The position numbers and the translations under genes are program-made. A stretch of DNA of 64,000 bases from Thermodesulfobacteriota bacterium (GTDB lineage: Bacteria; Desulfobacterota_D; UBA1144; Nemesobacterales; Nemesobacteraceae). Location: positions 64,001 to 128,000 of the forward strand of contig OZ241855.1 in the NCBI GenBank assembly GCA_965202785.1. Direction: 5' to 3'. This document shows, piece after piece, positions 1,104 to 14,335 of the stretch (position 1 is its first letter; every line of letters begins with the position of its first letter). The notes under the pieces are model-generated. The model ran no database searches. It had not been told where the DNA came from and saw only the letters and a program-made list of their open reading frames with translations.

Positions 1104-2102
1104 TTATCTTTCCTTTAGCTTGGGGTCTATCGCGTTTCTGAATCCTTCCCCCACCAGATTAAGTGCCGTAACCGTAACGAAAATCGCAAGCCCGGGGAAA
1201 AGAACAAGCCACCAAGCGAAATCCACGTACTTCTGGGACTGCGAGATTATCTCTCCCCAGCTGGGTTCAGGAGGCGTCACCCCGAACCCGAGAAAGCTGA
1301 GACTCGATTCAACCAGTATGGCTCCCGCCACTCCGAAGGTGGCGCTCACCAAAACGGGCGCAAGAGCGTTTGGAAGCATGTGTTTTAGTATAATCCTGCG
1401 GTCGCCGCTTCCAAGAGCCCACGCAGCCTCGACGTAGTTCGTCTGGCGAAGCTTAAGGAACTCCCCGCGAACGAGCCTCGCCACGCCCGTCCATCCCGTT
1501 ATGCCTATCACTATCATGATGTTGTAAATGCTGGGCTCGGTAAAGGCGAGGATGGTGAGGATCAGAAAGAAAACGGGGAAAGTGATCATCACCTCTATCA
1601 GCCTTGAGATCGCAAAATCGATCCATCCGCCGTAATAACCCGCAATCGCCCCCAGTATTATCCCTATCACCATGGCTATCCCGACAGCGACCACCCCTAT
1701 TGAGAGCGATATCCTCGCCCCGTGAATCATCCTGCTGAGAACATCCCTCCCCCTGTCGTCGGTGCCGAGAAAATGATTCCCGTCGGGAGCCGCGAGAACG
1801 GAGAAGAAATCGCTTTCCGTGGGGCTGTACTTTACGGGAGGGAAAATCGCGAACGAATCCGCGTCGTCAAGATACATGGCCCGAAGGTCCTCTCCGCGAA
1901 GCTCGGGATAGTCGATAACCACGGGAAAGTAGTACTTGCCCTCCTCAATGAGGACTATGGGCCTGTTGCCCGCTAGGAAACTCTCGAAAATCGCCGTCAC
2001 CGCGAGGAGAACTATGAAAAAGAACGAGGCGTACGCAAGGGAATCCTTTTTGAACTCGATCCATACCCTGTCCCAGTATCCGATGCCTGAACCCTGCTTC
2101 AT
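1104..2102 (-). CDS. oppC: Oligopeptide ABC transporter permease (OppC/DppC)
   Basis: HFLGTDDRGRD, EAA loop YVEAAWALG, HMLPNA, multiple TM segments. Confidence 0.92.
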   Translation of the reverse strand: MKQGSGIGYWDRVWIEFKKDSLAYASFFFIVLLAVTAIFESFLAGNRPIVLIEEGKYYFPVVIDYPELRGEDLRAMYLDDADSFAIFPPVKYSPTESDFFSVLAAPDGNHFLGTDDRGRDVLSRMIHGARISLSIGVVAVGIAMVIGIILGAIAGYYGGWIDFAISRLIEVMITFPVFFLILTILAFTEPSIYNIMIVIGITGWTGVARLVRGEFLKLRQTNYVEAAWALGSGDRRIILKHMLPNALAPVLVSATFGVAGAILVESSLSFLGFGVTPPEPSWGEIISQSQKYVDFAWWLVLFPGLAIFVTVTALNLVGEGFRNAIDPKLKER

Positions 2103-3100
2103 GATTTCCTCTCAAAGCCTATCCTTGGGTCAACCACGGCGTAGGTCAAATCCGATATCAGAATGCCGATCAGGGTAAGGAAAGCTGATATGGTGGCGAC
2201 GGCCATTATGACGGGGTAGTCCCTTGAAAGCACCGACTCAAAGCCCAGCCTTCCTATCCCGGGGATCGAGAATATGGTCTCTATGATAACGCTTCCCCCT
2301 ATCATTGCGGGAAGAATCGAGGCGATTATCGTCACTATGGGAATGAGCGAGTTCCTGAGGGCGTGCTTGAAAAGCACTCTGTTCGGAGCAAGTCCCTTGG
2401 CTCTCGCAGTCCTTATGTAGTCCTCCCGGAGCACTTCAAGGAGGCTTCCCTTCTGGTAGCGAGAAAGCGACGCAAGGGAGGCGTAGGTAAGACAGAACAC
2501 GGGGAGAACAAGGTGCCACAAAAAATCGAGAGTTCTCTCGAAAAACGGAAGGTCCTCGTATCCCCTCGAGTGCACGCCGTATATGGGGAAGATATCAAGA
2601 GCCCCACCTCCGCCGAAGAAATAGATAAGCACCACGGCCATCCAGAAGCTCGGAATCGAGTAGAGAAGAAAAAGAACGAAAGTCGTGGCCCGTTCCGCGA
2701 AACTCCACTGCCGCACGGCTGACCAAGCCCCGATCGGTATGGCTATCAGGTAAACGAGGAGAATCGAAAGCGCGTTAAGTATGAGGGTGATCGGGAGTCT
2801 TTCCGCGATCTTGTCTATCACGGGGCGGTGGTCCTTGTAGGAATTTCCGAAATCAAGCGTCGCGATCTGGCGGAGCCAGATGAAATACCTCTCGTGAACG
2901 GGCTTATCAAGACCGTAGAGCTTTTTGGTCTGCTCGACTATCTCCTTGGTCACCTGGTCGCTCTTTATTCCCTGATCAAGCGACATCCTGCTCTCAACGG
3001 GGCTCCCCGGAGCAAGCTGTATCACGAGGAAAGTGATAAGGGTGATCCCGAACAGCGTGGGAATCATCAGCAGAAGTCTTTTCAGGATGTAGTCTTTCAT
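2099..3100 (-). CDS. oppB: Oligopeptide ABC transporter permease (OppB/DppB)
   Basis: YILKRLL start, DFGNS, DYIRTARAKGL, KHALRN, ETIFSIPGIG, RDYPV; 4-bp overlap with oppC. Confidence 0.93.
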   Translation of the reverse strand: MKDYILKRLLLMIPTLFGITLITFLVIQLAPGSPVESRMSLDQGIKSDQVTKEIVEQTKKLYGLDKPVHERYFIWLRQIATLDFGNSYKDHRPVIDKIAERLPITLILNALSILLVYLIAIPIGAWSAVRQWSFAERATTFVLFLLYSIPSFWMAVVLIYFFGGGGALDIFPIYGVHSRGYEDLPFFERTLDFLWHLVLPVFCLTYASLASLSRYQKGSLLEVLREDYIRTARAKGLAPNRVLFKHALRNSLIPIVTIIASILPAMIGGSVIIETIFSIPGIGRLGFESVLSRDYPVIMAVATISAFLTLIGILISDLTYAVVDPRIGFERKS

Positions 3101-3181: not shown

Positions 3182-4636
3182 TCAACCAGTTCGGACTAGG
3201 CTCTCCGTCCCGAATTTCGAGATGACTTCCAATGTCTCGCGTACGTCGTTCCAGGTCGTCGAGTAGTTGATGACGCACATCCTGAGCGCAAACGCCCCGT
3301 GAAGAAGCGTCGATGATACGAACGCGCGGTCTTCCCAGAAGATACGGGCGAGCACGGTCCTGTTGATTTCTTCAAGCACGTCCTCGCCAAGGTCGGTGTT
3401 TGCGGGGTTGACGCGGAAGCATGCGATCCCCAATGTCGCAGGAGTCAACATCTCCAGAACGGGACTCTCCTCGACGTACTCCTCGATCCGGTGCGTAAGC
3501 GCCATCCCATTCGATACGGCTCGCCGGAACGCGGCCATCCCGAAGGTCTGAACCGACATCCAGATCTTGAGCGCCCGGACTGAGCGGCTTAGCTGCAGAC
3601 CCCTGTCCGAAAAATTCGGATGGTTGGCGCCCCAGATCGTGTCCTGGAGAATATCGCACTTGCCGGCGAACGCCCGCTCGAGCGTACGTACATCCTTCAC
3701 CATCAGGCCCCCCACCTCATAGGGCTGGAAGAACCACTTGTGTGCGTCAAGCACAATTGAATCGGCGCGCTCGATTCCACTCAAGATCTTCTTGCCTTCC
3801 TCGGTCACGATGGCAAAGCCTCCATGCGCGGCGTCGACGTGAAGCCATATGCCCTGAGCCTCGCAGTAGTCCGCCATGGCTTCCAGCGGGTCGATGGCTC
3901 CGCTGCTTGACGTTCCGGCGTTCGCACACACCGCGATGGGACTGAGTCCGGCGGCCCGGTCCTCGGCCACGATCTCGACAAGCGCATCCATGTCCATACG
4001 GAAACGCCCGTCGGTCGGGATCATACGGATGCATTCTGGACGAATACCTATAACCCTGGCCGCTTTTATGAGCGCACTGTGGCTCTGGTCGCTCATGTAC
4101 ACGCTGGCACGTTCCGGGTTGTTTGCGGCCTCCCGCGCCGCGACAAGAGCATCAAGGTTCGCCGCCGAGCCCCCGCTCGTCAACAGTCCGCCCGCACTCT
4201 CCGGATAGCCAATCCAGCGCCGAAACCAGTCGATCACGACAAGCTCCAGCTGGCTCGGACCGCTCGAAGTCAGCCAAGAGCACTGGTTGATGTTAAATCC
4301 GGCAATCATGAAGTCAGCCAGCACTCCGGGCCAGGTGGGCTGCGAAGGGATAAATCCAAAACAACGCGGGTGGTCCAAGCGCAGTGCGATCGGGAAGATC
4401 TCGCGTGCGGCCTCCTCGATCACTTGCGAGGCCGAACGGCTCTCCTCGGGCGGAGGCTTCAGCAGTCGATCCTCAAGTTCTCTTCGGAACTCTCCCTCCC
4501 AGGCACCTTCTCCGGGCAAGTTCTCTATGCGCTGCACCACCAACTCTGCCGTCTGGCGTGCAAGTTCGAGCATCTGTTCCGGTGACATGCTGAGATCACC
4601 ATCAACCCCGCCATTACCGCCTTTTGCTTTGCTCAT
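3182..4636 (-). CDS. Group II PLP-dependent (aromatic-L-amino-acid-type) decarboxylase or possible aldehyde synthase
   Basis: HPRCFGFI, TSGGSAAN, SDQSHSA, AGTSSSGAIDPL, WLHVDAAHGG, PLP lysine DAHKW, LSRSVRALKIW. Confidence 0.88.
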   Translation of the reverse strand: MSKAKGGNGGVDGDLSMSPEQMLELARQTAELVVQRIENLPGEGAWEGEFRRELEDRLLKPPPEESRSASQVIEEAAREIFPIALRLDHPRCFGFIPSQPTWPGVLADFMIAGFNINQCSWLTSSGPSQLELVVIDWFRRWIGYPESAGGLLTSGGSAANLDALVAAREAANNPERASVYMSDQSHSALIKAARVIGIRPECIRMIPTDGRFRMDMDALVEIVAEDRAAGLSPIAVCANAGTSSSGAIDPLEAMADYCEAQGIWLHVDAAHGGFAIVTEEGKKILSGIERADSIVLDAHKWFFQPYEVGGLMVKDVRTLERAFAGKCDILQDTIWGANHPNFSDRGLQLSRSVRALKIWMSVQTFGMAAFRRAVSNGMALTHRIEEYVEESPVLEMLTPATLGIACFRVNPANTDLGEDVLEEINRTVLARIFWEDRAFVSSTLLHGAFALRMCVINYSTTWNDVRETLEVISKFGTESLVRTG

Positions 4637-4863
4637 CTCTTTTAAGTTAACAGATTACCGTGTTAATTAAACATCGCAGGCCATGAAAGCTCCATAGAAC
4701 CCAACGGTGATCTTATTCTCCCGCTTAACTGTTTGTCAAGTAAAGATTAAGTTGTTTCAAGACAATACGGAACAGTTGGTGCTAACAAGCCAGGCGAGTT
4801 TTGCAACTGCCGGATCTATGGCACCTTCCCGTAGCACAGTAAACAGTACGGGACAAATGCCGC

Positions 4864-4921
4864 TTGACATTCGATCTAAACATTATCAATATTTAGGAAT
4901 ATCGCAGTATCAGATATTGCG
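4864..4921 (+). promoter_or_regulatory. Putative ALDH promoter with two imperfect palindromes (candidate operators)
   Basis: TTGACA 4864-4869; CTAAACATT-atc-AATATTTAG 4876-4896; CGCAGTATC-a-GATATTGCG 4903-4921. Confidence 0.4.
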
Positions 4922-4966
4922 GTCGATATGCCGGCATTTATCACGGTAATTTACAGGAAAAACCAA

Positions 4967-6400
4967 ATGAATCCAACAACGAAACCATTCCACCTTATCA
5001 TAAACGGCAGGAAGGTCCCTACCGGACGATGCTTTGAAGTGCTGAATCCCGCCAACGAAAAAGTGGCCGGACTTGCATCGCTGGCAAGGAAAAAAGATCT
5101 GGATGACGCCGTGCGAGCCGCCCAAGTGGCATTCAGAAAATGGCGCGAAGTGCCTGAATCCCAAAGACAGGCAGCATGTATGGAAATCGCCTCCAAAATC
5201 GAGGAAAACGCCGAGGAACTCGCCCGAATCCTGACCGCCGAGCAGGGCAAGCCCCTAAACGGCCTGGGCTCACGCTGGGAAATCGGCGGCGCGGTAGCCT
5301 GGACCCGCTATACAGCCGGCCTTTCACTGCCAGTGAAGGTCCTCCAGGACAACGATGAGGGCAGGGTCGAGCTTCACCGCAAGCCGATCGGCGTCGTGGG
5401 CTCGATTACTCCCTGGAATTTTCCGGTTCTGATCGCGGTCTGGCATATCGTTCCCGCCGTTCTCTCTGGCAACACGGTGGTAAGCAAGCCGTCTCCCTTT
5501 ACCCCCCTGTCGACGCTGCGCCTTGTCGAACTCATGAACGAGGTGCTGCCGGAAGGCGTGGTCAACTGTATCGCCGGCAAAGACAGACTGGGCGCCGCAA
5601 TGACGGCGCATGAAGGGATCGGCAAAATCGTTTTCACCGGCTCCTGCGCGACCGGCCAGAAGATCATGGTAAACTCGGCGGAAACCATGAAGCGGCTGAC
5701 TCTTGAACTTGGGGGAAACGACGCCGGAATCGTTCTTCCGGACGTCGACCCGAAGCAGATCGCCGAAGGGCTTTTCTGGGGCGCGTTCATCAATAGCGGC
5801 CAGACCTGCGCGGCGCTAAAAAGGCTCTACGTTCATGATGACGTGTACGACGAGGTCTGCGATGAACTGGTTGAACTCGCCCGAAAGATGAAAGTTGGAG
5901 AGGGTACGAACGAGGATGTCGTTTTGGGTCCGATCCAGAACCGCAAGCAATACGATATCGTGGCCGACCTGGTTCGAAGCGCGGAGTCCAAGGGACGCGT
6001 GCTCTTGGGCGGAGACCCCGGAGAGATACGGGAAGAAATGGGCGGGAAGGGATATTTTTATCCGCTCACGATCATAGCTGACCTGGAAAACGGAGACCCT
6101 CTGGTCGACCGGGAGCAGTTCGGCCCCGTTCTGCCGATTATCCGCTATCACCAGATCGAGGAAGCAATCGAGAAGGCAAACGACAATCCGAACGGTCTCG
6201 GGGGTTCGGTCTGGAGCCGGGACATAGAAAAGGCAAGAGAGATCGCGAACCGGATGGAATGCGGTTCGGTCTGGATAAACAAGCACGGAATGATCCAGCC
6301 CAACGCCCCGTTCGGCGGGGTAAAACGCTCCGGCTTCGGAGTCGAATTCGCAGAGGAAGGTCTGGTGGAATATACGGATATTCAGGTTGTCTTTTCCTAA
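4967..6400 (+). CDS. NAD(P)+-dependent aldehyde dehydrogenase
   Basis: ITPWNFP, KPSPFTP, FTGS, catalytic Glu in LELGGN, catalytic Cys in NSGQTC, EQFGPV, PFGGVKRSG; start placed at ATG 4967 (AGGA SD), ORF opens at 4928. Confidence 0.93.
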   Translation: MNPTTKPFHLIINGRKVPTGRCFEVLNPANEKVAGLASLARKKDLDDAVRAAQVAFRKWREVPESQRQAACMEIASKIEENAEELARILTAEQGKPLNGLGSRWEIGGAVAWTRYTAGLSLPVKVLQDNDEGRVELHRKPIGVVGSITPWNFPVLIAVWHIVPAVLSGNTVVSKPSPFTPLSTLRLVELMNEVLPEGVVNCIAGKDRLGAAMTAHEGIGKIVFTGSCATGQKIMVNSAETMKRLTLELGGNDAGIVLPDVDPKQIAEGLFWGAFINSGQTCAALKRLYVHDDVYDEVCDELVELARKMKVGEGTNEDVVLGPIQNRKQYDIVADLVRSAESKGRVLLGGDPGEIREEMGGKGYFYPLTIIADLENGDPLVDREQFGPVLPIIRYHQIEEAIEKANDNPNGLGGSVWSRDIEKAREIANRMECGSVWINKHGMIQPNAPFGGVKRSGFGVEFAEEGLVEYTDIQVVFS

Positions 6401-6419
6401 GCCGTCCAGGCGTCAGCTT

Positions 6420-6484
6420 CCCTCAATCCTAGTATTTGCGCAAGCCCTCCGGAACAAACCACTCCCTAGTATCAAATCCAAGCG
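6420..6484. repeat. Left copy of the 65-bp island-bounding direct repeat (duplicate of the oppA 3' end; att-like)
   Basis: 60/65 identical to 12674-12738; encodes LGFDTREWFVPEGLRKY* on the minus strand. Confidence 0.92.
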
Positions 6485-6614
6485 TAAAAGGCGTGTCGGA
6501 TTCTTGGAAGAAATCCAGAAGGAAAAGACATTTTCTTTCTCTGTCCAGTACATCGTGTTCGTGTGAGTCCTCAGCACTTATTTCGATTTGTTTAACCTTG
6601 GAAAATACCGACAT
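6429..6614 (-). other. 61-aa chimeric ORF: island-derived N-terminus fused in frame to the duplicated OppA C-terminal 17 aa
   Basis: Last 17 residues identical to OppA; TATAAT (6628-6623) lies 8 nt before the ATG; expression unknown. Confidence 0.35.
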
Positions 6615-6673
6615 GGAGGTGTATTATATTTTTTTACAAGATTTTATGTCTGAATAGAATCAAAAAGATTTAC

Positions 6674-6703
6674 TTGACATAATCACTTTCCCATTTTTAG
6701 CAT
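6674..6703 (+). promoter_or_regulatory. Sigma70-type promoter for the gajA-gajB pair
   Basis: TTGACA-N18-TAGCAT; strong SD GGAAGGAGGAG at 6770-6780 before GTG 6787. Confidence 0.6.
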
Positions 6704-6786
6704 TGTGAGATCTCCGCTTTGTTGAACTCACTACCCCAGATGGTGAAGGCGAGATATCGCAGACGAATTGGAAGGAGGAGCATACT

Positions 6787-8835
6787 GTGAAATTACATCG
6801 GGTACAGATTAGGAATTTCCGGTTGCTTCAAGATGTTGAGCTTAACCTCGAGGATCAGACGACTTTAGTTGTTGGTCGAAATAACACTGGTAAAACTTCT
6901 ATGCCAGAAGTTATTCGCCGTTTCTTAAGTAAAAACCAGTCTGCATTCCGCATTCAGGATTTTTCTATTGGTTGCTACGACGCTTTTTGCGAGGCACTCC
7001 AAGCTTTACGTGAAGGTAAAAAGGAACAAGAAGTACGAGAACTGTTGCCGTACATTGAGCTACGTATGTTCTTTGAATATGACAATCTCCCAAATACACA
7101 ATTCGGTCCGCTGGGTGAGTTTGTTGTAGATCTTGATATGAACTGCAAAGAAGCATTGGTCGTGATGCGGTTTGAGTTATCCGGTGGGGATATCGAACTA
7201 CTGTTCGAAGGTCAAAATGTAGCAAATCCAGAGGATAATGACGCACGTACAGCTTTTTTTCGCGTGATTGGTGAACGCATTCCAAGACTATATAAAATCA
7301 ATGTCTGGGCGGAAGATCCAAACGATATGGACAACCGCAAGCTTAGTTCTCAGGAAGCTGTAAGGTCTCTGCAAAAAACGGACTTTATAGATGCACATCG
7401 AGGCCTTAACGACATTACGACTAAAGAAAGCAATGTGCTGGCCAGAATTCTCGAAGTGCTTTTTAGCACGGCTACCTTGGAATCGGCCGACCAAAAAGAA
7501 CAGGAGATTGTCAAACAGATTGAAGAAGCAGTTGCAAGCATTCAGGAGAATATTGACGGCGAATTTAAAACGCAGTTAGAAACCCTTATACCCTCATTGG
7601 AAACATTAGGATACCCCGGTTTGGGAGACCCGGAACTCACTACAGAAACTGCTCTGGATGCAGAAAGGCTTCTCAAGGAACATACAAAAGTTCGCTACAA
7701 AGGATATAACGGCATTATGCTGCCAGAGTCTTATAATGGCTTGGGAATGAGAAATCTAATATTCATTCTTCTTAAAATTCTGAGCTTTCACAGAGAGTTT
7801 CGTGCAGAGACTGAGTCACATGGAGTACACTTGATTTTTATTGAAGAACCCGAAGCACACATGCATCCGCAGATGCAGGAAGTTTTCATCTCTCAGCTTG
7901 GCAAAATCGTTGATGATCTAAATAAAAGACACCCTGGAGAACCACCGTGGCCAGTTCAGTTTGTTGTATCAACTCATTCTTCCCATATTGCGAACGAAGC
8001 AAGTTTTGAGACAATCCGTTACTTTCTCCGTTCCTCGGTCAACAATGAAAAACCCGTTTGGAAAACAGAAATCAAAGATCTAAGCAAAGGTTTAACTGAT
8101 ATTTCTGAAGCAGATAAAGATTTTCTTCACCAATACTTGACCTTGACAAGATGTGATTTGTTTTTTGCAGACAAAGCGATCCTAGTCGAAGGTACAAGCG
8201 AGCACTTGCTAATTCCAGAGATGATTCGAAAACTTGATGAGAATTATACAGACGGGTCCGGACTCCTCAGTCAGTATGTGGCAGTTATGGAAGTTGGGGG
8301 TGCTTATGCTCACAAGTTTTTTGATCTTTTGAATTTTCTGGAACTCAAGAGCTTGATCATTACCGATCTCGACCCGGTTAAAGAAGATGGGGGCAAAAAG
8401 TGCGTCGTTCATGATTCTAAAGGAACAAGTAACCTCTGTATTAAGCAGTTTTTTGGTGGAGACTCATGTGTGCCCGATGATCTGATCAAAAAACCTGAAT
8501 GTGCACTTGTAAAAGGACTTATCCGGATTGCGTATCAATTCCCAGAAGTTGAAGGAGGTCCATGTGGAAGCACCCTTGAAGACATGTTTATCCTTGCGAA
8601 TACAGAAAAATTCGATGTAACCGGCGATACACCCAAAGAACAGGAACAAGATGCACTTAACAAGGCAGAAAAATTCAAGAAGACCAGATTTGCCCTACAA
8701 TATGCGATTGATGATTTACAATGGAAGACGCCTAGATATATCACCGAAGGGTTGAAGTGGCTTGCAGGTGGGTTTTGTAGCGATACAGAAAACTCCGGCG
8801 ATAAGGATACTAGCACACGGGGCAAAGGTTCATGA
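6787..8835 (+). CDS. gajA: OLD-family ABC-ATPase/TOPRIM nuclease (Gabija GajA-like)
   Basis: Walker A GRNNTGKT, signature NGLGMRNLI, Walker B/D-loop IFIEEPEAHMHPQMQ, H-loop STHSSH, TOPRIM LVEGTSE and ITDLD, TLED; coupled to a UvrD helicase. Confidence 0.82.
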   Translation: MKLHRVQIRNFRLLQDVELNLEDQTTLVVGRNNTGKTSMPEVIRRFLSKNQSAFRIQDFSIGCYDAFCEALQALREGKKEQEVRELLPYIELRMFFEYDNLPNTQFGPLGEFVVDLDMNCKEALVVMRFELSGGDIELLFEGQNVANPEDNDARTAFFRVIGERIPRLYKINVWAEDPNDMDNRKLSSQEAVRSLQKTDFIDAHRGLNDITTKESNVLARILEVLFSTATLESADQKEQEIVKQIEEAVASIQENIDGEFKTQLETLIPSLETLGYPGLGDPELTTETALDAERLLKEHTKVRYKGYNGIMLPESYNGLGMRNLIFILLKILSFHREFRAETESHGVHLIFIEEPEAHMHPQMQEVFISQLGKIVDDLNKRHPGEPPWPVQFVVSTHSSHIANEASFETIRYFLRSSVNNEKPVWKTEIKDLSKGLTDISEADKDFLHQYLTLTRCDLFFADKAILVEGTSEHLLIPEMIRKLDENYTDGSGLLSQYVAVMEVGGAYAHKFFDLLNFLELKSLIITDLDPVKEDGGKKCVVHDSKGTSNLCIKQFFGGDSCVPDDLIKKPECALVKGLIRIAYQFPEVEGGPCGSTLEDMFILANTEKFDVTGDTPKEQEQDALNKAEKFKKTRFALQYAIDDLQWKTPRYITEGLKWLAGGFCSDTENSGDKDTSTRGKGS

Positions 8836-10571
8836 GTGATACTGTTAAAAGTTCACCGGCGGAAGAGGCTAGCGAGCGCGCCTTGGATGAAGTGTACAAA
8901 AGTATTGAACGAGGTCAGAGCTTCAAACTGGAAGCTGGAGCGGGTGCCGGCAAAACATATTCGCTAGCGGAGGCGTTAAAGTTTCTAACCAAACGCGAGG
9001 GAAACCTTCTGAGGCGATTGAATCAGCGTATTGCTTGTATCACATTTACCAATATTGCCAAAGATCAGATTGACGCGCGAACGGACCGGAATCCGCTTAT
9101 CTGTTGTGACACGATTCATGGTTTCTGCTGGTCAACTATCTCGGGTTTTCAAAGACATCTCCGTATCCTACTACCAGAAATTGATAAATGGGAAGAGCGT
9201 CTTAACGAGGCGGGCGGTGTGGGTATACGCAAGATCGACTATTCGCTTGGCTACAGGGAGATTGCTGATGATAAGATTTCCATACATCACGACGATGTTC
9301 TGGTCTTGAAGATCAAACTTCTTGCGTACGAAAAATTCCGCTTACTTTTTACATACCGTTACCCAATCATTCTTATCGATGAGTACCAAGACACAAATAC
9401 TGATTGGATAGATGCCATCAAGGAACATTTTTTAGGACAGGAGGATGCACCTCTTTTCGGATTTTTTGGCGACCATTGGCAGAAGATATATGGAAACGGG
9501 TGTGGGCAACTCATTCATCCTGCTCTTAGAGAAATTGGCAAAGAGGCGAATTTTCGTTCGGTTTCGGCGGTGGTCGATTGCCTTAACCGTATGCGTCCAG
9601 AACTGCCGCAATTTGTTGTTGACCCGAAAGAAAGGGGTGAGGTCTATGTGTTCCACACAAACAACTGGAGGGGGGGACGCCGAACTGGACCACATCACGG
9701 TGGTGATCTTCCCGCCGAAGCAGTTAGTCCTGCGCTGGATTCGGTAAAGCAACGTTTGACTGAATGCGGATGGGGGTTTTCCGCAACACAGACTAAAATT
9801 CTGATGCTAACACATCGCGCTTTGGCTGCTCAGCAGGGTTACAATGCCTTACCGTTCGTTTTTCGTAATAATGACTCGTTTACAAAGAAAGAACAGCCTC
9901 ATATCGCATTTTTTGTTAATCAATTGGAACCAGCATGCAGTGCCTTTACCGAAAAAAAATATGGCAAAATGTTTGAGGCTCTTGGGATTAACAAGAAATA
10001 CATTTTAGAAATCACGGACAAAAACAGGTGGGCTAAGTCAATGAACCGGCTATTAGAATTACGTGAAAAAGGCACAGTAGCTGAAGTTATGAGTCATCTG
10101 CGTAAAACTAAGTTGCCCCAATTACCGGAATCCGTGGAACATCTTGAAAAACAACTCGAAGCCTTTGACCAAGAAAGCGGGGAAGAGATGCCACGAGCGC
10201 TTACAGAGCTTTCTAAACTTCATCCTGTAAATTACCAGGAAATTGTATCATTAACGGATTACCTGGAAGGACATTCCCCCTTTGAAACGAAACATGGGGT
10301 AAAAGGTGCAGAATTTGAAAATGTTTTAGTTGTGATAGGCCGGGGCTGGAACCAGTACAATTTTGTGGAAATGCTTGCCTTAGCTCAAAAAGGCGACTTG
10401 CAGGGTACAGAAAAAAATATGTTCGAGAGAAATCGCAATCTTTTTTACGTGACATGTTCTCGTCCGAAGAAACGACTGGCCTTGCTCTTTACGCAAGAAA
10501 TATCAGAAGACGCCATGCGGACAGTTGAGACTTGGTTTGGTGCTGACAATATTCATTCTGTGGAATTTTAG
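8832..10571 (+). CDS. gajB: UvrD/SF1A helicase-like protein (Gabija GajB-like)
   Basis: AGAGAGKT, ITFTN, TIHGF, ILIDEYQD, FGDHWQKIY, NFRS, TKHGVKGAEF, YVTCSR; ATGA overlap with the OLD nuclease gene. Confidence 0.82.
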   Translation: MSDTVKSSPAEEASERALDEVYKSIERGQSFKLEAGAGAGKTYSLAEALKFLTKREGNLLRRLNQRIACITFTNIAKDQIDARTDRNPLICCDTIHGFCWSTISGFQRHLRILLPEIDKWEERLNEAGGVGIRKIDYSLGYREIADDKISIHHDDVLVLKIKLLAYEKFRLLFTYRYPIILIDEYQDTNTDWIDAIKEHFLGQEDAPLFGFFGDHWQKIYGNGCGQLIHPALREIGKEANFRSVSAVVDCLNRMRPELPQFVVDPKERGEVYVFHTNNWRGGRRTGPHHGGDLPAEAVSPALDSVKQRLTECGWGFSATQTKILMLTHRALAAQQGYNALPFVFRNNDSFTKKEQPHIAFFVNQLEPACSAFTEKKYGKMFEALGINKKYILEITDKNRWAKSMNRLLELREKGTVAEVMSHLRKTKLPQLPESVEHLEKQLEAFDQESGEEMPRALTELSKLHPVNYQEIVSLTDYLEGHSPFETKHGVKGAEFENVLVVIGRGWNQYNFVEMLALAQKGDLQGTEKNMFERNRNLFYVTCSRPKKRLALLFTQEISEDAMRTVETWFGADNIHSVEF

Positions 10572-10835
10572 AATTGCGAGAGAAATTATTGTGAGAAGGT
10601 GCAGAAAACGGTACGGGTGGCAAGAGAGTAGTAAGACTCCTTGAAGAAAGGTTTTGGTACAAAGCGTATGATTTCTATATAGAATTTTATAACTGTACAA
10701 ATGGTTTTTGTAATTAACAGATAGGTCTACTGTGACAAGAGTTATTGTCCACATAAGTGCTTTTGGATTGTAAATCTATCAATCTTTTCAGTCGGTTATC
10801 TTCAAGTGTGCAAAATGGGTAACTGAAGAGTTTTC

Positions 10836-10864
10836 TGTTATATTAAATGCGCTGTGTGACACAC
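10836..10864 (+). promoter_or_regulatory. Extended -10 promoter plus palindrome upstream of the 504-aa gene
   Basis: TGtTATATT at 10836-10844; GTGTG-A-CACAC at 10854-10864. Confidence 0.4.
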
Positions 10865-10874
10865 GATATTTTTC

Positions 10875-12389
10875 ATGAGCGACAGCATTGAAAGTTATTT
10901 AAAATTACATGGTCCGAGTCTATCTAGCGAGATAAGTAACCACCTCGTGAGAACTCAAAACATTACACCGGCAACAGCACGAAAACGCATTTCTCGAGCA
11001 AAAACAACGGGTAAAGTACACCACCTTACACATATTACCTTTCCCCAAAGAACGCATTTTATTTATCTGGGGCACCAGTTCGGTTCCCAGTTGTTCTGGG
11101 AGAAACTAATTGAGGTATTGCTACAACAGAATTCTGCATATGGGTTAGCGATTGCTGCTGTTCGGCAGCGCAGGGGCTTGGTCCCACTCAAACATTTTGC
11201 AATAGCGTGTGGTGCACCATTAAAGCAGGCACGCCATCTTTCTCCAGATACAATTTTTCAGCGTTTGGAAAAAACAGGTCTTTTATGGAAAACGGATTTC
11301 CCTGGTGTTGGGGAATGTATATTGCTTGTACAACCCGATAGCAATTACGACTCAATAGTAGCTTATACGAGAACTCGCTTAATTACCGAGAAATTTTTGC
11401 TGCTTGCTATAAAAGATTGGCTGAAAAAGCTGGGTATTGTCAGCTACGATAAAGTTGAGATACGTGAAATCGAAACTCAACCTAAAGTCGGAACGTTTGT
11501 TTGGGACTTGACTGCCCCATCCTACCTCGGTTTTATGGCGAAGCCTCGTAAAGGCGGTAAAACCAAGCCTGGGTTTGTCACCTGTGATGTATGTTTAGGC
11601 GATGTTGTAAACTCAACTGGAATAAAGCCATTCATAAACAAGTGTGTTACTCTCAGGGCGCTTCAAAATATCGGCGCTTGTATGCAGATATTCGTTGCGG
11701 ATAAGTACACTCAAGATGCCTTCAATCTTCTAAAACAAAAGGGAATTATCCCTGCCACACCCCGCAACTTGTTCGGTGAAGAGGTAGCGGAAGGCCTAAC
11801 TGCGCTTTCAGAAGTACTTCGGAAAGCAGCCGAGACTGCTATTAATCCCCAGCAATTTGACCAACTGTTTGATAAACTTGGCAAGATAGAAGGTGCTTCT
11901 AGTCAACTGCGGGGTACGCTCTTTGAATATGTGGTTGCCGATGTGCTAAGAAAAAATGGTTCGAATCAAATTTTAATGAATCGGATTTTCAAGTCGGACG
12001 ATGAAAAGGAAGCGGAAGCCGACGTAATCTCCATTAAGGACAATCGTTCGGTCACTTTCGTAGAATGCAAGGGATATAATCCTGATAGTGAAGTACCTGA
12101 CAAATATTTGGAACGGTGGCTTCACCACAGCATTCCGATATTTTTCAAATGGATAAAGGCTCACCCCGACTGGAGAAACCTCGAAGTCTGTTTCGAATTC
12201 TGGACAACTGGCTCACTGTCCAAAGAAGCCTTGAAGATGTTTAATACCAATCAAAAGAAAATCAAAAAGTCCCGATACACGATAGAACTACTCCTAGGAC
12301 GTGAAATCCTTAGAACATGTAAGTCAACTAAAGACAAAGGGCTGGTTAACACATTCAAAAAACATTTCATGAAAATTTACTCGGAGTAA
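10875..12389 (+). CDS. Uncharacterised protein with predicted N-terminal winged-helix region and C-terminal PD-(D/E)XK nuclease domain
   Basis: 504-aa ORF in the island; C-terminal RGTLFE...EADV...VECKG nuclease motif; HGPSLSSEI...ITPATARKRISRA resembles an HTH. Confidence 0.75.
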   Translation: MSDSIESYLKLHGPSLSSEISNHLVRTQNITPATARKRISRAKTTGKVHHLTHITFPQRTHFIYLGHQFGSQLFWEKLIEVLLQQNSAYGLAIAAVRQRRGLVPLKHFAIACGAPLKQARHLSPDTIFQRLEKTGLLWKTDFPGVGECILLVQPDSNYDSIVAYTRTRLITEKFLLLAIKDWLKKLGIVSYDKVEIREIETQPKVGTFVWDLTAPSYLGFMAKPRKGGKTKPGFVTCDVCLGDVVNSTGIKPFINKCVTLRALQNIGACMQIFVADKYTQDAFNLLKQKGIIPATPRNLFGEEVAEGLTALSEVLRKAAETAINPQQFDQLFDKLGKIEGASSQLRGTLFEYVVADVLRKNGSNQILMNRIFKSDDEKEAEADVISIKDNRSVTFVECKGYNPDSEVPDKYLERWLHHSIPIFFKWIKAHPDWRNLEVCFEFWTTGSLSKEALKMFNTNQKKIKKSRYTIELLLGREILRTCKSTKDKGLVNTFKKHFMKIYSE

Positions 12390-12470
12390 GTCAACACTAT
12401 GCCCAATAAATTGAGAACGATTTCTCCCTTCCATCCGGTTTCTGGCCTTTGTGCAACTTGCAATGTACCC

Positions 12471-12490
12471 GACTGACAATGACTGACAAA
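12471..12490. repeat. Tandem GACTGACAA repeat with 10-bp period; candidate tyrosine-integrase arm site
   Basis: gactgacaat gactgacaaa about 185 bp inside the right repeat. Confidence 0.5.
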
Positions 12491-12673
12491 AATTATGTAT
12501 TGTTATTAGCGTGTAATTTAAATGACTAGAGCTTCGCCGTGAAACGAGAAACATATATAATGTCTCTTGAGAAAATTAACGGACGAATTGAAGAGCTTTA
12601 ATAAGAGAATTCGTGGCGCAAGGAAAAGAACTGTTCTTTGAAAAACTCAAACAAAGAACGAATTAAAGAAAAA

Positions 12674-12738
12674 CCCTTAATCCTAGTATTTGCGCAAACC
12701 CTCCGGAACAAACCACTCCCTGGTGTCAAATCCCAGCG
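12674..12738. repeat. Right copy of the 65-bp direct repeat (current oppA 3' end; att-like)
   Basis: 60/65 identical to 6420-6484. Confidence 0.92.
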
Positions 12739-14335
12739 GATAGAGTCTTACGTTGTGGAACCTTCTGTGCACGGCCACGGTGGATTTTCTCGCGAACAAA
12801 AACGTGTACGGCTGTTCCTCGTGAAGAATCCTTGAGAATTCCTCGTATTTTTTTATTCGCTCCGGCCTTGAGAACTCCTCTCTCGCCTCCTCAATCAGTA
12901 CATCCGCACGGGGGTTCTTAAAGCCCACGAAATTCGAGCCTTCCTCGGCCTGGGAGGAATGCCAGAGCTGGTAGGGATCGCTTTCCACTCCCAAGCTCCA
13001 CCCAAGGGTCACGGCATCGAATTTCCGCTCGGTTATGCTCTGGATAAAAACCGCCCACTCTATCTTTCTTATGCTCATCTCTATGCCGGAGCGGGAGAGC
13101 TCCTCTTTCAGTATGGTCGCTATCTTCTCACCGGTTTCAGAACCCGTGGGCAGCAGAAACTCGAAACGGAAAGAAACGCCGTCCTTGTCCCTTATTCCAT
13201 CACCGTCGCTGTCGCGCCACCCCGCCTCGTCAAGAAGCGCCCTAGCCCTCTTCGGGTCATAGGCGTACGGCTTCACGTCTTTTGGGTATTCGGGGCTGTT
13301 CACGAAAAAAGTCGTGGTCACTATTTCTCCGAGACCCAGCAGAATCTCTCTCAGTATGGTTTCCCTGTCGACAAAATGGGTCATCGCCCGCCTTACCCTT
13401 TTATCGCTGAAAAAAGGCTTCCTCGAATTCCACCCTATGTAGTTGTAGCCCGGGGTCGTATAGGAGGACCTGTAGAACTTTTTCCGAAACGGTTTCCCGC
13501 AGCTCTGCTTTGACCACTGAAGCGGAAGAAGACCCCCGTAGTCAAGCTCCTGTTTTTTTAGGAGCTGAAGCTTCACCGTGGGGTCAAGCACTACCTTGTA
13601 GACCACTTCACTAAGCAACGCGGGCTCGCCCCAGTAACCGGGGTTTTTCCTGACCCTGATCTCCCTTCCCGTCTCCCAGTGCTCAAAGACGTAAGGCCCC
13701 GTCCCGACGGGTCTTCTGCCGGCGGGATTAGTGTTGAAATCTCCTTTCCCGAACACGTGCTTAGGCACTATGGGAATTCCCCCGCAGAACTCAAAAGCGC
13801 GGAAGTAGGGTTTTTCGTACTCGCATCTGACGGTATGGGAATCAATCTTGGTGTAGGACTTTACGTCCTGATAGTAGCTCTGGAGGTGAGCGGCGGCGAC
13901 TTTCGGATTCCTTATGGATTCATAGGAAAAAACCACGTCATCGGCGGTAAAAGGAGTGCCGTCATGCCATTTTACGTCTTTTCTGAGGTAAAAAGTGTAG
14001 GAAAGCCGGTTCTCTGAAACTTCCCAGGAACTTGCGAGAAAGGGCTCGAACTCAAGGGTTTCGTTATTCCTTCTTACAAGCCTCTCGTAGATTCCGCCGT
14101 TAACGATGCCTTCGTAAACATCCGTGGCTATAACGGGGTTGAGGGTTGCCGGCTCCTCGCCGAGTTCCCTTATAAGCAAATCCCCGGCGGAAAAAGCCTT
14201 CGGGTCAGCATTGCCTGTAAGTGAGGCGTTATCGTTTTTATCCTGACAGTCCGTGCTCCGGGAGCATCCGGCAGAGAAGAACCCCGCAGACGCGACCAGC
14301 AACGCGAGTGCAAAGAGACGCAGAAATTTTCCCAT
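12683..14335 (-). CDS. oppA: Peptide ABC transporter substrate-binding lipoprotein (family 5, OppA/AppA-like)
   Basis: Lipobox FSAGC, FYLRKDVKWHDGTPFTADDVVFS, PVGTGPY, DKRVRRAM, LLDEAGW. Confidence 0.93.
   Translation of the reverse strand: MGKFLRLFALALLVASAGFFSAGCSRSTDCQDKNDNASLTGNADPKAFSAGDLLIRELGEEPATLNPVIATDVYEGIVNGGIYERLVRRNNETLEFEPFLASSWEVSENRLSYTFYLRKDVKWHDGTPFTADDVVFSYESIRNPKVAAAHLQSYYQDVKSYTKIDSHTVRCEYEKPYFRAFEFCGGIPIVPKHVFGKGDFNTNPAGRRPVGTGPYVFEHWETGREIRVRKNPGYWGEPALLSEVVYKVVLDPTVKLQLLKKQELDYGGLLPLQWSKQSCGKPFRKKFYRSSYTTPGYNYIGWNSRKPFFSDKRVRRAMTHFVDRETILREILLGLGEIVTTTFFVNSPEYPKDVKPYAYDPKRARALLDEAGWRDSDGDGIRDKDGVSFRFEFLLPTGSETGEKIATILKEELSRSGIEMSIRKIEWAVFIQSITERKFDAVTLGWSLGVESDPYQLWHSSQAEEGSNFVGFKNPRADVLIEEAREEFSRPERIKKYEEFSRILHEEQPYTFLFARKSTVAVHRRFHNVRLYPLGFDTREWFVPEGLRKY

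Follow-up and report, generated by a model that had tools for sequence, protein, structure and literature searches.

A duplicated solute-binding-protein gene end brackets a predicted Gabija island at a variable defence hotspot in an uncultured Thermodesulfobacteriota lineage

In the genome of an uncultured Thermodesulfobacteriota bacterium, an island of about 6.2 kb carrying a predicted Gabija anti-phage system is inserted between two copies of the 3' end of a gene for a family-5 solute-binding protein, one attached to the gene and the other an orphan. The locus adds to a known kind, in which defence genes are inserted without an integrase and a long stretch of a gene end is duplicated, and on balance we favor the reading that the repeat is the scar of host recombination that displaced the resident gene end at a defence hotspot free of integrases. 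We analyzed a stretch of 64,000 nt (contig OZ241855.1, positions 64,001-128,000, assembly GCA_965202785.1), here called the window, and coordinates are positions in it unless marked “genome”. The source is an assembly of the metagenome-assembled genome (MAG) type, closed in a single contig of 1,643,464 bp and 96% complete; it is labelled G000 and is included among the 36 genomes of its genus that form the comparison set. Comparisons with the literature rest on parts of five articles (PMC2853133, PMC5361080, PMC7563491, PMC10250203 and PMC10121019).

The repeated gene end

The junctions of the island are formed by the following features.

6420..6484, minus strand: orphan gene end, which keeps the native junction with the aldehyde dehydrogenase gene
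12674..12738, minus strand: gene-attached repeat copy, the functional gene end (pairwise comparison, translation)
12683..14335, minus strand: family-5 solute-binding protein, 550 aa, intact (Pfam SBP_bac_5, E 1.5e-95)
4928..6400, plus strand: aldehyde dehydrogenase (Pfam, NCBIfam)

The two repeat copies are identical at 60 of 65 positions, and their homology breaks off sharply at both edges. Each consists of 9 nt beyond the stop codon, the TAG stop and the final 17 codons of the binding-protein gene, and translation of the minus strand gives LGFDTREWFVPEGLRKY and then the TAG stop for both. The coding differences between the copies (CTT/CTG, GAT/GAC, ACT/ACC and GGC/GGT) all lie in third positions and are synonymous, and the fifth difference falls in the 9 nt beyond TAG; an earlier reading made from the letters alone (the sequence-only reading) had described the repeat exactly so, with its 60 matches, four synonymous changes, one change past the stop and identical peptide. 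That reading took the changes for synonymous recoding under selection. They are instead ordinary standing polymorphism between species, because both letters occur among the functional alleles of other species at 4 of the 5 variable positions; the G at position 52 is private to the intact copy of G000. A 43-nt core pattern, allowed up to 3 mismatches, matches the window twice, at the two repeats, and none of 100 shuffled sequences, and BLAST across the 1,643,464-bp genome returned two copies only and no third. Direct repeats that hold the 3' end of a target gene, with the gene itself restored, are therefore present as proposed. The name oppA, by contrast, applies at the level of the family only, since the NCBIfam Opp, Nik and Dpp matches to the 550-aa protein all fall under their cut-offs.

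An artefact had been named beforehand as the finding that would undo this picture, and the assembly is indeed of the MAG type, with related strains present together with G000 in the same sequencing runs. However, contigs from four public runs of three studies cover the island with zero differences and bridge both of its junctions. The left junction is bridged by contigs X10 record 6 (6369-9839) and X11 record 10 (6307-7566), and contig X9 record 27 (6432-12781) runs from the interior of the left repeat through the island and the right junction into the binding-protein gene. Because these contigs bridge both junctions without a difference, we exclude an assembly artefact or a chimeric MAG join for all practical purposes, its probability being very small; matching architecture in nine other genomes also argues against it.

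A variable site behind the binding-protein gene

The binding-protein gene with oppB directly behind it is the ancestral operon, an arrangement kept by 8 of the 14 genomes that lack the aldehyde dehydrogenase, in which oppB stands 17-183 nt behind the gene. The dehydrogenase is found in 21 of the 36 genomes and is absent in 14, and one genome gave no match; in the 21 genomes a decarboxylase and the dehydrogenase stand between the binding-protein gene and oppB. The permease genes of the split operon are now probably read from the decarboxylase side. The corresponding features of the window are these.

2099..3100, minus strand: oppB-type permease (Pfam BPD_transp_1), the ancestral downstream neighbour of the binding-protein gene
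3182..4636, minus strand: pyridoxal phosphate (PLP) decarboxylase (Pfam, NCBIfam)
3182..6400: older operon-splitting insertion (decarboxylase and dehydrogenase)

Empty sites, which the sequence-only reading had proposed to look for, exist in five relatives: in 5 of the 21 dehydrogenase-bearing genomes the dehydrogenase is directly convergent on the binding-protein gene, and in the other 16 the site is occupied. The cargo at the occupied sites is as follows.

Fic: G022, G011, G008, G042, G003
HipA: G050, G041, G043, G044, G019, G002
AbiE: G003, G021
HNH and HEC-01: G049
MBL protein and E2/E1/JAB-patatin fusion: G024, G003
Two small open reading frames (ORFs): G023
Gabija: G000

At this site G049 (L120:13935-16567) carries an HNH endonuclease with an HEC-01A/B pair (PADLOC E 6e-154 and 3e-70). 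A single E2-E1 (ThiF)-JAB-patatin phospholipase fusion of about 1180 aa stands beside an MBL-fold protein in G024 (L026:1770-5321) and G003 (L027:1675-5220), and this fusion resembles a defence module of ubiquitin-like conjugation in which a lipase is the effector and a cyclase is lacking. The 14 dehydrogenase-less genomes comprise the 8 ancestral ones, 5 with inserts of 1-10.5 kb (an esterase, or insertion sequence elements together with a homologue of the 504-aa protein described below) and G048, which is placed in neither group. On a tree built from the gene body, the cargo types are mixed with one another and with empty sites; G022 (Fic) and G041 (HipA) are near-identical in this gene. The site is a variable hotspot for defence and toxin-antitoxin genes in the genus.

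Orphan gene ends in the genus

An extra gene end lies within a few kb in 10 of the 36 genomes (10 of the 16 occupied ones), with lengths of 46-172 nt, a spread that is in part the product of later deletion.

Orphan lengths in nt: G000, 65; G024, 171; G003, 141 and 165; G008, 129; G050, 81; G011, 59; G049, 55; G041, G043 and G044, 46 each

Orphans decay, shrinking by deletion: the same HipA cassette is accompanied by an 81-nt orphan in G050, by a 46-nt deletion derivative in G041, G043 and G044, and by none in G019 and G002. Several relatives' orphans also carry nonsynonymous changes or a 1-nt insertion that shifts the frame.

In four relatives the dehydrogenase-side orphan is closer to empty-site functional alleles than to the intact end of its own genome, with 113 versus 108 of 117 positions in G008, 67 versus 58 of 70 in G050, 42 versus 38 of 47 in G011 and 33 versus 28 of 34 in G041. 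The intact ends of occupied genomes mostly read …KYSN before the stop codon instead of …KY, like those of dehydrogenase-less genomes. From these allele affinities and the stop region we infer that the orphan is the former resident end and that the attached end arrived with the cargo. The gene-attached copy had been proposed as a replacement end, and the comparison of alleles bears this out in the four relatives while not discriminating for the orphan of G000 itself.

Three ends stand in series in G003, in the order Fic', orphan, AbiE, orphan, MBL-E2 and gene, and the MBL-E2 cassette recurs in G024, where its orphan junction is the same but the left context is another. In G008 and G049 a decayed 5' fragment of oppB, together with its upstream spacer, follows directly after the orphan, a permuted junction that is explained as the expected product of one homologous and one illegitimate joint between variants of the locus. 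A clean mosaic parentage was considered for the orphan of G024 and rejected; its first 110 nt agree with its own intact end at 107 of 110 positions and its last 49 nt at 41 of 49, and these last 49 nt agree at only 40 of 49 with the junction-sharing orphan of G003, which leaves a discontinuity without clean parentage.

Cargo of the island

The GC profile suggested as a check supports a foreign island. The aldehyde dehydrogenase gene has a GC of 0.55-0.59 and the stretch 6500-12500 one of 0.38-0.47, with a genome mean of 0.507, and the island stands at about 0.42 versus 0.51-0.58. Its contents are listed below.

6485..6786, plus strand: gajA upstream region, within the foreign block (sequence comparison)
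6787..8835, plus strand: GajA, 682 aa, ATPase and OLD-type TOPRIM nuclease (PADLOC E 1.3e-270)
8832..10571, plus strand: GajB, 579 aa, UvrD-type helicase (PADLOC E 9.2e-255; Pfam UvrD-helicase, UvrD_C)
10875..12389, plus strand: 504-aa protein with a predicted C-terminal PD-(D/E)xK-type nuclease domain
12429..12673, plus strand: ghost of a Fic cassette, 245 nt (aligned to the intact Fic cassettes of G008, G022, G011 and G003)

Residues 1-663 of GajA match a PADLOC profile of 679 positions, and Pfam recognizes AAA_15 (E 2.5e-56) and OLD-like_TOPRIM (E 3.5e-17) in the protein. The gajA and gajB genes overlap by 4 nt, and the order GajA-GajB is the same in metagenome relatives, of which the nearest, in 27 loci of metagenome contigs, are 62-66% identical. 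By these matches the two genes make up an intact, textbook Gabija pair, a predicted anti-phage system, and the description of the insert as a defence island is upheld. The rest of the genome and the loci of the relatives contain no homologue of the 300 nt to the left of gajA, and neither the promoter-like matches in 6485-6786 nor a terminator scan rose above shuffled sequences.

The 504-aa protein matches no Pfam family at threshold, a weak match to Mrr_cat having E 0.003. It belongs to an atlas cluster of 3853 members, 14% of which carry NERD, and of its 404 homologues the best 120 share 49-83% identity with it and for the most part are annotated “hypothetical”. In a structural model with a pLDDT of 86, the C-terminal fold matches the nuclease domains of Card1, Can2, MspJI and FokI. 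We predict from the model that the protein is a nuclease of a family of “hypothetical/NERD” proteins of about 500 aa, and its N-terminal helical region is taken to be putatively DNA-binding. A donor search found the gene beside GajAB in 0 of 27 metagenome loci; because it is missing there, it is treated as separate from Gabija, as a candidate stand-alone defence gene. A homologue with 32% identity is present in the same hotspot of G001.

The Fic ghost retains the upstream region of the cassette, the first 13 codons of the gene (12560-12598, stop 12599) and the last ~20 codons (12600-12660), with an internal deletion of about 1.25 kb and 53 nt gone before the gene end. It is common to relatives with other repeat structures. 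The DNA between the repeats reads as a composite of a lineage-specific 5.9-kb block, holding Gabija and the lone nuclease, and an older, gene-adjoining Fic ghost, and the view of the island as a single element is not borne out.

Recombinases and junctions

The prophage e14 and phage 21, which integrate in icd, supply a substitute 3' end by which the gene stays functional; both come with an integrase of their own and a fixed att core. The sequence-only reading had seen no integrase between the repeats, and profile scans of the insert ORFs agree, finding no recombinase or transposase there. Nor did Pfam scans of the larger insert ORFs find a recombinase at the site in any of the 36 genomes, and the only transposases among the insert ORFs scanned were DDE transposases in G001 and G048. 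Whole-genome searches place the nearest PF00589 gene 69-94 kb away in nine occupied relatives, where it is mostly a syntenic Xer-like gene, and found no PF00589 on the contig of the site in six further occupied relatives (15 searched in all). The genome of G000 itself carries no PF00239 gene and three PF00589 genes, of which the closest lies about 78 kb from the site and one encodes a third, non-Xer tyrosine recombinase. An element family using this gene as its attB had been envisaged; given that no site recombinase was found among the ORFs scanned in the 36 genomes and that the conserved gene-end core had 0 matches in viral contigs, this idea is not supported.

One X9 contig joins 6428 to 12683, skipping 6254 nt, at a depth of 5.5 versus 27 for the island. 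As related strains co-occur, this joint may be the empty site of another strain and not an excision. In X10, an abundant relative joins 6405 to 12600.

A second site in the same genome

Comparison of the genome with itself uncovered a cassette at genome 1163269-1165595 (L162:3270-5596), outside the window, which consists of a 273-aa ORF and a 397-aa AbiEii toxin and lies between lnt and an aminotransferase gene that is convergent and overlapping. A repeat of about 44 nt of the lnt 3' end brackets the cassette, in which no recombinase is found. The lnt orphan is present in 5 of the 36 genomes, of which four carry this cassette and the fifth other cargo, and the two cargo types share a boundary at the lnt stop. 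The lnt site shows the same pattern as the site behind the binding-protein gene, and G000 contains at least two loci of the orphan-end type.

A further direct repeat of 57 nt, 96% identical, was observed at genome 870125-874003 (L161:3126-7004), also outside the window. The repeat surrounds a block of 3.8 kb that lies between a NUDIX gene and mnmG and contains two small ORFs besides genes for a DUF255 thioredoxin-like protein and an ECF sigma factor.

Proposed host recombination and its alternatives

The binding-protein gene is strongly mosaic between species. In a sliding identity profile the 3' ~550 nt of the G000 gene are closest to G017/G013 and the remainder to G049, a pattern that marks the gene, as judged by this profile, as a recombination mosaic. 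Under the reading that we favor, DNA from a related lineage would bring its own 3' end of the binding-protein gene together with the cargo downstream of it, and host homologous recombination, presumably dependent on RecA, would integrate the incoming DNA with its anchor in the gene. The far side would be joined illegitimately, or through a pre-existing orphan serving as a second homology arm, and the resident gene end would stay behind as a non-functional orphan beside the aldehyde dehydrogenase gene. Afterwards, ordinary double crossovers could swap the cargo lying between orphan and gene, recombination between the repeats could lose it, and deletions would whittle the orphan down.

Several observations weigh against this reading. 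The scans for a recombinase in the relatives' inserts took in the larger ORFs. No circular back-joint, and with it no recombination intermediate, was found in the contigs of four runs, contigs being a form of data that drops rare forms. Canonical natural transformation as the entry route is not supported, with no match to ComEC in G000 and a match to DprA below the cut-off; because the gene is mosaic despite this, the exchange of DNA must go by a different path. The tree, being that of a single, recombining gene, does not settle how many events took place or in which order. The sharp edges of the repeat and the boundary at the lnt stop shared by two cargo types would also fit a site-specific system. 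Finally, the copies of G000 cannot be polarized from the repeat alone: against the five empty-site alleles the orphan agrees at 59, 57, 50, 59 and 51 of 65 positions and the intact end at 59, 60, 50, 60 and 49. The prediction that the 6420 copy would match uninterrupted alleles is supported by its native dehydrogenase junction only, the 19 nt to the left of the orphan being the same as in empty-site relatives, and repeat identity does not discriminate. The two copies of G000 are also the most alike of all such pairs (92% versus 71-90%) and, unlike those of relatives, bear one type of 9-nt tail, and therefore a simple target duplication or a later conversion fits them equally.

This likeness is what speaks for a true duplication of the resident 65 nt, by staggered breaks or template switching, with later divergence and no foreign end, and the published restriction-modification cases are described as target duplications (PMC2853133). 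Yet of the four coding differences at least two appear to be derived states of the orphan, while all four are synonymous and both of these states occur in the functional alleles of other species, which weakly favors an origin from a functional allele over neutral drift, 17 codons not being decisive. In addition, the two copies clearly come from different allele families in four relatives, and relatives of other repeat structure also have the Fic ghost that lies within the repeats, such that a target duplication seems to us rather unlikely. We consider it quite improbable that the locus is a decayed site-specific element, in the manner of a cis-mobilizable element (CIME), whose parent integrative and conjugative element (ICE), integrative and mobilizable element (IME) or phage left attL and attR and which is now mobilized only in trans. 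Such elements are classically recognized by a directly repeated gene 3' end whose replacement copy is functional, streptococci commonly carry CIMEs of 1.2-13 kb at the 3' ends of genes (PMC7563491), the serial orphans of G003 resemble tandem accretion, the repeat boundaries are sharp, and the genome encodes its third, non-Xer tyrosine recombinase. Set against these points are the lack of a site recombinase among the ORFs scanned in the 36 genomes, the nearest being at least 69 kb away, the lack of a tandem ICE or IME and the lack of matches to the conserved core in viral contigs. The orphans also vary in length, the inter-repeat DNA is a composite with an older Fic cassette on the side of the gene, and the oppB fragments beside orphans are unexpected from att recombination.

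Relation to known systems and significance

Displacement of a resident end by host recombination would place the locus near several published systems. Many bacteria are reported to have restriction-modification genes whose insertion went with a long target duplication of variable length, no other mobility gene being present (Furuta, Abe and Kobayashi 2010, PMC2853133), with repeats of more than 30 bp and up to about 420 bp, some of which overlap a gene 3' end, and with the mechanism given there as unknown. The present locus has the features of a long target duplication (a unique 65-nt repeat, five empty relatives, and a 6.2-kb insert without recombinase or transposase) and resembles the cases of that article in its defence cargo, long genome-unique repeats, deviating GC and lack of a mobility gene. 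Unlike them, so far as the article describes them, it carries Gabija and, in relatives, other systems that are not restriction-modification, at a multi-cargo hotspot with serial orphans; its two copies seem to come from different alleles and not from one target; and its lineage is without canonical competence genes, whereas most of the published cases are in competent species.

Orphan arrays of type VI secretion system (T6SS) effectors have been ascribed to homology-facilitated illegitimate recombination, and rhs 3' ends are cited likewise (Kirchberger et al. 2017, PMC5361080). Our locus is like those of rhs and contact-dependent inhibition (CDI) systems and of the T6SS in its homology-anchored entry, in the old downstream part kept as an orphan, in the arrays and in the absence of an integrase. 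In the loci treated in that article the displaced ends are different toxins and immunities, which are the point of the exchange; here, in contrast, the end encodes the same peptide, and the payload behind the transporter gene is unrelated, being made up of defence and toxin-antitoxin genes. CIMEs, found at the 3' ends of fda, rpsI, rpmG and tRNA genes, are what is left of ICEs or IMEs without their integrase, and are defined by descent and by tandem association (PMC7563491). They share with our locus integrase-less cargo, gene-3'-end repeats, a similar size and the position of the most decayed units farthest from the target gene; unlike the CIMEs of that article, the site has no ICE, IME or integrase found at it in the 36 genomes, and its repeat length is not fixed. 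Integrase-free defence hotspots are known as cDHS1/2 of Pseudomonas aeruginosa (PMC10250203) and hotspot #37 of Escherichia coli (PMC10121019), for which homologous recombination of the flanks is proposed. As there, a single position between conserved genes holds diverse defence systems, in many instances without a mobile gene; unlike those hotspots as described, the loci here are small (1.2-10 kb) and keep a visible orphan scar.

How defence systems move without a nearby mobile-element gene is a question raised for hotspot #37 (PMC10121019) and for the P. aeruginosa hotspots (PMC10250203). The 36 genomes give a readable series of locus states, from the empty site through the fresh-looking orphan, the decaying orphan and the lost orphan to serial orphans, and as read from these genomes the series points to host recombination, and not a dedicated recombinase, as the probable driver. 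The “long target duplication” is hereby extended from restriction-modification to Gabija, HEC-01, AbiE, HipA, Fic and ubiquitin-like systems in an uncultured lineage. We propose tentatively, as a possibility that we hold with some doubt, that the orphan end is more than a scar and acts as a portable homology arm. If so, an orphan-flanked cassette could enter any genome that has the gene by double crossover, whatever lies downstream, and an integrase-free, homology-guided mobile pool of defence and toxin-antitoxin cassettes would target conserved gene ends in small genomes.

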